From Escherichia coli (GTDB lineage: Bacteria; Pseudomonadota; Gammaproteobacteria; Enterobacterales; Enterobacteriaceae): DNA of 64,000 bases. Every line of letters starts with the position of its first letter. The stretch's first letter is position 1. The DNA lies in assembly GCF_003334815.1 (NCBI RefSeq), contig NZ_QOWO01000003.1. One strand, given 5' to 3'. The position numbers and the translations under genes were made by a program. This document shows positions 27,511 through 49,645 of this stretch, piece after piece. The notes beneath the pieces were generated by a model. It was not told the DNA's origin. It was given only the letters and a program-made list of their open reading frames with translations, and ran no database searches.

Positions 27511-29420
27511 TTAATTTGGGGTTACGATATTCACCCACAAATCGAAATTATCCAGACAGGCGATAATTTCTTCCAGTTTCGCGCCATTGCCAATAATTTT
27601 GGCTTTCTTCGCTTTTACCAGATCCGCCATTTTGGCTTGTCCGGTCAGCACGGCGTGCAGATCTTCACGGCTGATGTAGAAAGAGGCGTCGGCTTGCGGT
27701 TGCAGCGTTTTCCGGTAGTTAAGCACGCTATCGTTCAGCGTCAGGTTGAGGTTATCGCCGTTGCTCATATTGAAGTTCAGGCTGATATTTTTACCCGCAG
27801 CTTTCGCGCTATCGAGGCGAACGGCCATAAAGTCGAACAGCATTTCGACCGACATCCCGCGAATGGTGTCCGGGGAACCGGTGGTGCCGTGGCTGAACTT
27901 ATGCACCCCTTCGCGCAGCTCTTTCGCGCCGGTCAGGTAGAAACCGCGCCATGTGGCGGACTCGGCCTGATAGCCCAGCTGTTCAAAGTTATTCGCTTGC
28001 AGATTCTTCGCGACCTGGTCACCCGGGTTGGCGGCAATCACCTGTTTCAGCAGTTCTGCCGACCAGCGGTAATCACCTTGCTTGTTCGCTTCTTGCGCCA
28101 GGTTGATGACACGGGCAGAACCGCCCAGCGCCTGCACGTAACGTTTACCCATCTCCACCTGACCATACGGATGCAGGTTAGCCGGGTTACCGTCGTAATA
28201 GCCAAGATAGAAGTTATACACCGCGCGGGCGTTGTGGCTGACAGAACCGTAATAGCCGCGGCTGGCCCAGTTATTGGCAAGTGCAGGCGGCAGCTTAATC
28301 ATGTCGCCGATTTCATTCATGGTGTAGCCCTGGTTCGCCAGGTGTGCGGCATAAACAGCACTTCCGCGTCGTTACCCCACATATCCAGCGTTTCGTTCAG
28401 ATACTCGGTCCACTTGCTGGTGTCGCGGGTTTTCGCGCCGCGCAGAGTGTAGAAGTTGTGCAGGGTATGCGTGGCGTTCTCGGCGGTACACAGGGCTTTC
28501 AGGGCCGGAATATAGAAGTGCATTTCGGCTGGCGCTTCGCTACCTGGGGTCATCAGGAAGTCAAACTCCAGGCCGTCGATAATCATCTTCTCGCCAGTTC
28601 TGACGATAGTTTTCGTCGGTGCAATAATGCTCGGGTCGCCCGTTGCCAGCGTCACGCCAAGGCCATTACCCACATTGCCTTGCGCGTTGTGCGGCAGTAA
28701 CAGACCGTAAGAGTAGAGCGCACGGCGGCTCATGATGTTACCCGCCAGCACGTTTTCGCTGATGGCTTCGTCCATAAAGCCTGCAGGGGCAATCACCTGA
28801 ACTTTGCCGGATTTAACATCGGCTTCAGAGATAATGCCTTTCACGCCACCATAGTGGTCGGTGTGGCTGTGAGTGTAGATAACGGCAACAATCGGTTTTT
28901 GCGGACGATGCTGGAAGTAAAGGTCAAGTGCGGCTTTTGCGGCAGGCGGCGTCACCAGCGGGTCGATAACAATAATGCCTTTCTCGCCCTCAACGAACGT
29001 AATGTTAGAGATATCCTGGCCGCGCACCTGATACATTTTATCGGTGACTTTGAACAGGCCAGAAATACCGTTGATTTGCGACTGACGCCACAGGCTGGGG
29101 TTTACGGTTTCCGGCGCTGCGGCATTAATATCAAATTTGTAATCGTCCGCGCGGTAGTAAACTTTACCGTTCGCATCACGCAGAATACCTTCATCCAGCA
29201 GCGGGGCGATAAATCCACGCTGGGCATCGTCAAAATCCTGACGATCGCTAAACGGTAATGATTTGGCGTAATTCTGATTAACCTGTTGGGTATATTGAGT
29301 GGCGGCTTTCGCTTCCTCTTTCGCGTTAGCGGTATTTACCATCATGCCGCTGGCGGCAGTTAACGCAATAACAATCCTGCTCAAACGGAATAACCGAGAG
29401 TTATTCATATAAATCTCCAT
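27511..29420 (-). pseudogene. yjcS: SdsA1-like alkyl sulfatase (MBL fold plus SCP2 domain), disrupted by a frame shift
   Basis: ORF track splits it into 28317..29420 (367 aa, ends ...[16 protein letters not shown]) and 27511..28320 (continues ...[12 protein letters not shown]... in another frame); junction near 28335..28340. Confidence 0.7.
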
Positions 29421-48552: not shown

Positions 48553-48616
48553 GATGGTGACCTCAGTTAAGAGAAGCCAGTTAAGTGTAGTTCGAAATTT
48601 ATACAGATGAGAGGCG

Positions 48617-48900
<284 letters not shown>

Positions 48901-48909
48901 ACAATACAA

Positions 48910-49245
48910 TCAGTTCTTTTTCACAAACTCAGATTTCAGTTTCATCGGACCAAAACCGTCGATTTTGCAATCGATGTTATGGTCGCCTTCAACCAGGCGG
49001 ATGTTTTTCACTTTGGTGCCAATTTTCAGCATCGAAGAGCTACCTTTCACCTTCAGATCTTTAATGATGGTAACGCTGTCGCCGTCAGCCAGCAGATTGC
49101 CGTTAGCATCTTTAACGATCAGCTCGTCGCTTTCCTGTGCAGGTTCTGCGTCGTTCCATTCGTAGGCACATTCCGGGCAGATGTACATGCCGTTATCTTC
49201 GTAGGTGTATTCGGAGTTGCATTTTGGGCAGTGTGGTAATGACAT
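48910..49245 (-). CDS. phnA: PhnA-type zinc-ribbon protein
   Basis: ORF track 160 aa trimmed to [30 protein letters not shown] (111 aa); CxxC...CxxC. Confidence 0.9.
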
Positions 49246-49645
49246 GTGGATTTCCTCAAAAGTCAGCAGGGCAAAAGCGCCAAAAAACGGCAGATTGCCG
49301 AAAAAGGCCGCAATTATACACAAAATCCCTGAGTTTGTCGGGGGTACTGCTGATTTTAGACGACGATCGTTTTCATTTGAAAGGAAACGCAAAAAGAAAA
49401 TAATCTTTTTGCCTCTATTTATTATTTAAGATAATGTTAATGCTCTACTTGTTCTTTTTTTAATTCACATGATATTTTTATCTTTCTGACGTTTTAAACG
49501 TATCAGAAGACGTTATTTATTCTGATAAAAAACAACACACTAAATATAAAATTATTTCTTGCAGTAATTATAAAAGCCGAAAACAGAACTCAAAAACAAT
49601 CTGGCTAAATAAAATAACAAAATTTGCTTTAAGGAAGAATTTTCT

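Follow-up and report, generated by a model that had tools for sequence, protein, structure and literature searches.

The AT-rich spacer between yjdM and crfC of Escherichia coli as a divergent promoter region associated with H-NS

The stretch of DNA analysed here, hereafter called the window, comprises 64,000 nucleotides of an E. coli K-12-type chromosome and contains an intergenic spacer of 400 bp at positions 49246-49645. To the left of this spacer lies yjdM (formerly phnA; 48910-49245, minus strand), which encodes a zinc-ribbon protein of 111 aa, and to its right lies crfC (also called yjdA or rdcA; 49646-51874, plus strand), which encodes a dynamin-like GTPase of 742 aa and heads the crfC-yjcZ (rdcAB) operon. 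The function of crfC/rdcA was taken from PMC6510439 and PMC6374313, in which the protein is implicated in the colocalisation of sister forks and in the activation of the diguanylate cyclase DgcE. The initial annotation had placed the spacer between two divergent genes, and its limits proved exact: the yjdM start codon occupies 49245-49243 (minus strand), and crfC begins with an ATG at 49646. The spacer is 100% identical to positions 4326735-4327134 of MG1655 (NC_000913.3), between b4108 and b4109, and no feature is annotated inside it in the curated RefSeq record of MG1655 or in AML001. Of 5426 complete E. coli genomes, 5405 have the arrangement of yjdM, spacer and crfC, with identities of 96.8-100%. 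The spacer had also been called unusually long, which does not hold within the window, where the other sizeable divergent spacers measure 392 bp (acs-nrfA) and 358 bp (alsR-rpiB).

The AT-richness that had been noted for the spacer is pronounced: its GC content is 31.2%, compared with 52.8% for the window, where none of the 28 intergenic regions of 50 bp or longer has a lower value (median 41%). A low-GC core of 266 bp (49380-49645) has a GC content of 24.1%, and the yjdM-proximal 134 bp are of ordinary composition (45.5% GC). The description of the spacer as having many A/T runs was equally apt. We counted 21 runs of at least four, which places the spacer above all of the 1272 tiles of 400 bp (mean 3.9, sd 2.8) and at approximately three times the number expected from composition-matched shuffles (7.2 runs, sd 2.4), none of which reached 21 in 2000 trials. 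An excess of A/T runs is common in the promoter-bearing spacers of the window (z 2-5), and the yjdM-crfC spacer, with a z of 5.7, is the extreme of a continuous distribution and not a different kind of object. TpA steps were fewer than the composition predicts (31 vs 46.9), and the AT-rich DNA is therefore of the A-tract type. Because the A-tracts were not helically phased (AA/TT Fourier power at 9.5-12 bp; 843 of 2000 shuffles reached the observed maximum), there is no sign of strong intrinsic curvature.

Loci for an alignment of the spacer were obtained by scanning representative genomes for the N-terminus of CrfC, which returned Escherichia whittamii, Escherichia sp. E1V33, Citrobacter koseri, three C. 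amalonaticus and Yokenella regensburgei; eight genomes were aligned. At every locus returned by the scan, yjdM was divergent from crfC. The orthologous spacers are 346-528 bp long and have a GC content of 33-36%, compared with 49-54% for the loci, and an excess of A/T runs was found in all of them (z 2.6-5.9). Thus, the AT-richness and the excess of runs are retained across orthologues although the middle of the spacer does not align.

Three zones emerged from the alignment. In block A (about 49283-49345), hardly any position varies: K-12 and SE15 (a B2 strain) differ at none of 105 positions, compared with 0.9% in the yjdM coding sequence, and the divergence of block A from E. whittamii, at 1%, is below that of the yjdM coding sequence itself. 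The middle (49351-49554) evolves faster than the flanking coding sequence, differing by 5.4% within E. coli and by 15-17% from E. whittamii, and it has large indels in Citrobacter. Within it, the AT-rich and A/T-run-rich core (49380-49554) is indel-prone and poorly conserved in sequence but conserved in composition, and a semi-conserved island is present at about 49412-49440 (TTTATTATTTAAGATAAKGT). Conservation across genera returns in block B (49555-49645). Two palindromes of the middle zone (49389-49412 and about 49486-49508) were considered as operators and rejected because even SE15 and E. whittamii do not retain them.

A divergent σ70 promoter should present a leftward -35/-10 pair with a spacing of 16-18 bp, and such a pair was found on the minus strand at 49313-49341, where the -35 element CCGACA (49341-49336) is separated by 17 bp from the -10 element TATAAT (49318-49313). 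This predicted promoter of yjdM agrees with the consensus at 10 of 12 positions and has a PWM score of 9.3, and both hexamers and the distance between them are invariant in all eight aligned genomes. The start of yjdM is accordingly predicted from the sequence to lie near 49306, which would give the mRNA a 5′ leader of about 60 nt (49246-49306, minus strand). The leader contains a small, conserved hairpin, CGGCA-AUC-UGCCG (49300-49288), that is followed by a U run; as a whole, the leader folded no better than shuffled sequences (z -1.0).

That the spacer may carry promoters for both genes, as initially proposed, is supported by the invariant yjdM motif and by published occupancy data. The published ChIP coordinates were converted to window positions by an offset that was derived from the position of the FliA motif and that agrees with the gene coordinates of MG1655. 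In the ChIP-chip data of Cho et al. 2014 (PMC3923258, Table S2), the RNA polymerase region RNAP_1973 corresponds to 49130-49480, and its centre, at about 49305, coincides with the predicted yjdM start. The σ70 region SigD_1665 (49217-49654) covers almost exactly the spacer, and the σS region SigS_912 spans 49255-49504. By SMRT-Cappable-seq, b4108 and b4109 were each assigned to one transcription context in both growth media. Unlike the binding-region table, the TSS tables of Cho et al. 2014 yielded no entry for the locus, nor did the covered part of the Kim 2012 tables, and RpoD genomic SELEX lists no constitutive promoter for the spacer, which counts against the explanation that we favour below.

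On the crfC side, block B (plus strand), as delimited in the eight-genome alignment, probably holds the core promoter and leader of crfC. Its conserved parts are GTAATTATAAAAGCCGAAAA (49564-49583), which comprises GTAATTAT and GCCGAAAA; GGCTAAATAAAA..AATTTGC (49603-49627); and the Shine-Dalgarno sequence AAGGAAG (49632-49638). The assignment of the core promoter to this block relies on its conservation and on how far the σ70 region extends, and not on a motif. A PWM scan returned no convincing -35/-10 pair on the plus strand near crfC, where the matches to both elements are weak, and the best plus-strand matches lie far upstream, at 49377-49437. Because the crfC promoter has no good -35 element, it would be intrinsically weak or dependent on other factors. 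The conservation of GCCGAAAA might, purely hypothetically, reflect the discriminator and start region of a core promoter that uses the adjacent AATTAT as its -10 element. The folding of the predicted crfC leader did not differ from that of shuffled sequences.

The initial annotation had further suggested that the spacer is bound by nucleoid proteins, and published work supports this for H-NS. According to PMC6374313, which cites Oshima 2006 and Shimada 2011, H-NS binds at the promoter region of crfC and represses the gene, and crfC mRNA was markedly raised in a Δhns strain at both 30 and 42 °C (PMC6374313 Fig. 5B, n=2). PMC5797941 associates crfC-yjcZ with H-NS on the basis of two genome-wide datasets (Kahramanoglou 2011 and Oshima 2006), and the same study found that overproduction of SlyA raises crfC-yjcZ 2.6-fold. 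The spacer also has the low-GC tract beside the promoter (266 bp, 24.1% GC) that is expected of an H-NS-repressed promoter. The high-affinity H-NS motif of Lang et al., tCG(t/a)T(a/t)AATT, is absent from the spacer, in which we found two matches with two mismatches; this is the chance level, given that such matches number 184 in the window compared with 167 ± 13 expected. The motif is not required for H-NS binding, and because it is absent, H-NS presumably binds via the general AT-richness of the DNA. We infer that the AT tract itself is the nucleation site of H-NS. TpA steps are said to be favoured by H-NS, and the spacer is depleted in TpA, which counts against the three-zone reading given below. 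For the two other nucleoid proteins considered, Fis (GNNYAWWWWWTRNNC) and IHF (WATCAANNNNTTR), no consensus match was found in the spacer. Fis may still bind without a consensus site, given the abundance of A/T tracts, which correlate with Fis binding.

We therefore read the spacer, with a probability of approximately 85%, as a divergent region of three zones that consists of a σ70 promoter of yjdM, an H-NS-coated AT tract and a weak or factor-dependent promoter of crfC. The composition, the A/T runs, the conserved blocks and the yjdM motif in this model derive from the sequence, and the occupancy, the H-NS binding and the derepression in Δhns derive from the literature. In the yjdM-proximal 100 bp, the conserved σ70 promoter would fire leftward from about 49306 and produce the leader of ~60 nt. 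Between the two blocks, H-NS would coat the A/T-run tract of ~200 bp and 24% GC and would thereby keep crfC transcription low, and the loss of H-NS, or the overproduction of its antagonist SlyA, would raise crfC expression. The crfC-proximal 90 bp would provide the core promoter, leader and ribosome-binding site of crfC/rdcA. The spacer is thus an ordinary, real AT-rich divergent promoter region of a well-known kind. Its role, with promoters for yjdM and crfC and repression of crfC by H-NS, is already published; what the present analysis adds is the precise, conserved yjdM promoter and the three-zone map of conservation across the spacer.

Promoters that are silenced by H-NS and counter-silenced by SlyA or LeuO, such as those of hlyE/clyA, fimB, proU and bgl, resemble that of crfC in the combination of an AT-rich tract with a weak promoter, and crfC shares with them the association with H-NS and the increase in expression both in Δhns and upon SlyA overproduction. 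Binding of SlyA or LeuO to the spacer is putative. Unlike the genes of this group, crfC has a normal GC content and is a core gene that is present in >99% of complete E. coli genomes, and its repression is therefore not the silencing of a foreign island. The yjdM-crfC spacer also differs from these promoters in lacking the high-affinity H-NS motif and in being rich in A-tracts and poor in TpA. A second comparison is offered by acs-nrfA in the same window, which is likewise a back-to-back spacer of ~400 bp (392 bp) with promoters at both ends and an enrichment of A/T runs, but which is less AT-rich (38.5% GC). The acs-nrfA region is a classic case of control by Fis and IHF. In contrast, the documented protein at the yjdM-crfC spacer is H-NS, and the spacer has neither a Fis nor an IHF consensus.

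Several other readings of the conserved elements were weighed against the three-zone model. The element GTAATTATAAAAGCC (49564-49578) in block B could be a bidirectional core promoter, in which a minus-strand TATAAT (49572-49567) would direct a leftward start near 49560 and an overlapping plus-strand AATTAT (49566-49571) would direct a crfC start near 49578-49580. The minus-strand arrangement TTGAGT-15-TATAAT is the top PWM match of the region (11.0; 95th percentile 9.9), the element is kept across genera and repeats the -10 region of the yjdM promoter (GCAGTAATTATA vs GCCGCAATTATA), and the σ70 ChIP region extends to it. However, the -35 matches are poor and require a 15-bp spacer, and AT-rich DNA gives many comparable matches by chance. 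Moreover, the perfect hexamer breaks down in C. amalonaticus, where TATTAA on the plus strand (AATAAT on the minus strand) takes its place, and we consider this reading unlikely.

DnaA boxes in the upstream region of crfC were pointed out in PMC6374313, in which it is suggested that DnaA stimulates crfC. A promoter under the control of DnaA should have at least one box (TTATNCACA) in its vicinity, and the spacer contains an exact match to the consensus, TTATACACA (49314-49322, plus strand), which overlaps the -10 hexamer of yjdM, as well as a box with one mismatch, TAATTCACA (49461-49469); DnaA binding to these boxes is putative. DnaA might act directly through the spacer, by repressing yjdM at the box over its -10 element and/or by stimulating crfC through the displacement of H-NS. 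The exact box is kept in seven of the eight genomes, but this conservation is confounded by the overlap with the yjdM -10 hexamer and may simply reflect that hexamer. In the wild type, crfC mRNA rose ~2-fold at 42 °C, which it did not do in dnaA46 (PMC6374313); this effect is small (n=2) and may be indirect. Because the 64-kb window has seven exact matches to the relaxed consensus, the single exact box within 400 bp is unremarkable, and direct regulation by DnaA appears improbable.

The conserved GTAATTATAAAAGCCGAAAA and the island at about 49412-49440 match no promoter or factor consensus that we tested. As a site for an undescribed activator or anti-silencer, or as a bidirectional core promoter, they might serve to open the tract coated by H-NS, a proposal that we regard as distinctly unlikely. 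If true, it would connect rdcAB, and with it c-di-GMP signalling through DgcE, to a new signal.

Zhao et al. 2007 assigned yjdA to the σF regulon and predicted σF sites upstream of it, which was repeated in PMC6374313; a σ28 (FliA) promoter in the spacer would then drive crfC/yjdA directly. In that work, yjdA was down 12-fold in ΔfliA and up 5-fold upon σF induction, and most of the upstream fragments tested, including that of yjdA, gave σF-dependent RNA synthesis in a bulk incorporation assay (Zhao et al. 2007). The spacer also contains GCCGAAAA at 49576-49583, which agrees with the σ28 -10 consensus at 7 of 8 positions, is identical to the listed -10 element of tsr (PMC4183435) and is kept in Escherichia and Citrobacter. 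However, the -35 position paired with GCCGAAAA reads TCTTGCAG and matches at 2 of 8 positions. The best match in the spacer to the two-block consensus TAAAGTTT-N11-GCCGATAA reached 10/16, and 150 sites in the window score at least 11. FliA ChIP-seq has no site upstream of yjdA, and the upstream prediction was called incorrect on that occasion (Fitzgerald et al. 2014, PMC4183435). RpoF SELEX finds the intragenic site alone, and we consider a σ28 promoter in the spacer very unlikely.

This intragenic σ28 promoter, TAAAGTTCTGGCAGAGCAGGTCGATGAA (51619-51646, plus strand), lies inside crfC and drives yjcZ/rdcB. It is an exact match to the motif given in PMC4183435 and scores 13/16 against the consensus. 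Fitzgerald et al. 2014 described the site as strong and as driving yjcZ, RpoF SELEX also detects it, and it falls within RNAP_1974 (window 51380-51730), to which no σ factor was assigned (Cho et al. 2014, PMC3923258). The FliA dependence of yjdA is explicable by reads or probes located downstream of the intragenic promoter, which argues further against a direct role of the spacer. Our scan provides support, at the level of sequence, for the view that the upstream σ28 prediction was wrong. Under the three-zone model, the FliA dependence of the locus would come mainly from the σ28 promoter inside crfC that drives yjcZ and not from the spacer. As judged by expression, the locus is part of the flagellar regulon, like the class 3 flagellar promoters tsr and tar, and the spacer has a -10 element of the tsr type, GCCGAAAA; unlike tsr and tar, the spacer has no TAAAGTTT -35 element and no FliA binding in vivo, and the real σ28 promoter lies 2 kb downstream.

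That the spacer hides an unannotated gene for a small RNA or a small protein is extremely unlikely: it is 400 bp long, has conserved islands and contains short ORFs, for example a 33-aa GTG ORF (49552-49653, minus strand), but its sole Rfam match is at chance level (E=4.4) and not credible, the curated MG1655 record annotates nothing, both predicted leaders fold no better than shuffled sequences, the middle of the spacer is indel-rich and outpaces the flanking coding sequence in divergence, and the text portion of the supplement of a 3′-end mapping study (Adams 2021) contains no term for the locus. The small ORFs, namely the 33-aa GTG ORF and a 9-codon ATG ORF at 49434-49463, were rejected as not conserved.

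Because CrfC is implicated both in sister-fork colocalisation and in the activation of DgcE, its amount bears on nucleoid partition and on the transition from motile to biofilm growth. Published work states that H-NS must keep CrfC low, which gives the spacer a real physiological role that has already been described. Beyond a tidy annotation, the findings on the spacer matter little.

Three E. coli strains were unusual at the locus. In ET846, a natural isolate, the spacer has received an IS1 element, which duplicated a 10-bp target, CCGAAAACAG, at window positions 49577-49586. It interrupts the conserved GCCGAAAA ~60 bp upstream of crfC and separates crfC from the AT-rich tract. In AVS0747, a rare case, the sequence beside yjdM has been replaced: 12 bp past the start codon of yjdM the match stops, and where the spacer and crfC would follow, there are a truncated cupin gene and genes for an electron-transfer flavoprotein. 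In SCPM-O-B-8794, crfC is split over two contig ends that carry residues 1-131 and 129-323, respectively, which suggests a repeat or an insertion sequence inside the gene.

Elsewhere in the window, the best match to the σ28 consensus (14/16, TAAAGTTT-N11-GACGATTA) was located at about 29139-29166 on the minus strand, inside the 5′ part of yjcS, a gene that a term search did not find in the main text of Fitzgerald 2014. The yjcS gene (27511-29420, minus strand; alkyl sulfatase) is missing ~89 bp at about 28320-28345 in comparison with an MG1655-type genome. It reads as two ORFs of 269 and 367 aa and is therefore probably a pseudogene in the present strain.

Beside the locus, the gap between yjdN and yjdM contains a tandem REP array (window 48616-48895, minus strand) with a period of 100 bp, 2.8 copies and 95% identity. 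The array gave three full-length matches to the Rfam family naRNA4 (RF02564; 95-111 bits) and is the REP325/naRNA4 locus of PMC4550694. Because the yjdN-yjdM spacer measures 357 bp here and 657 bp in MG1655, the present strain has three fewer repeat units.
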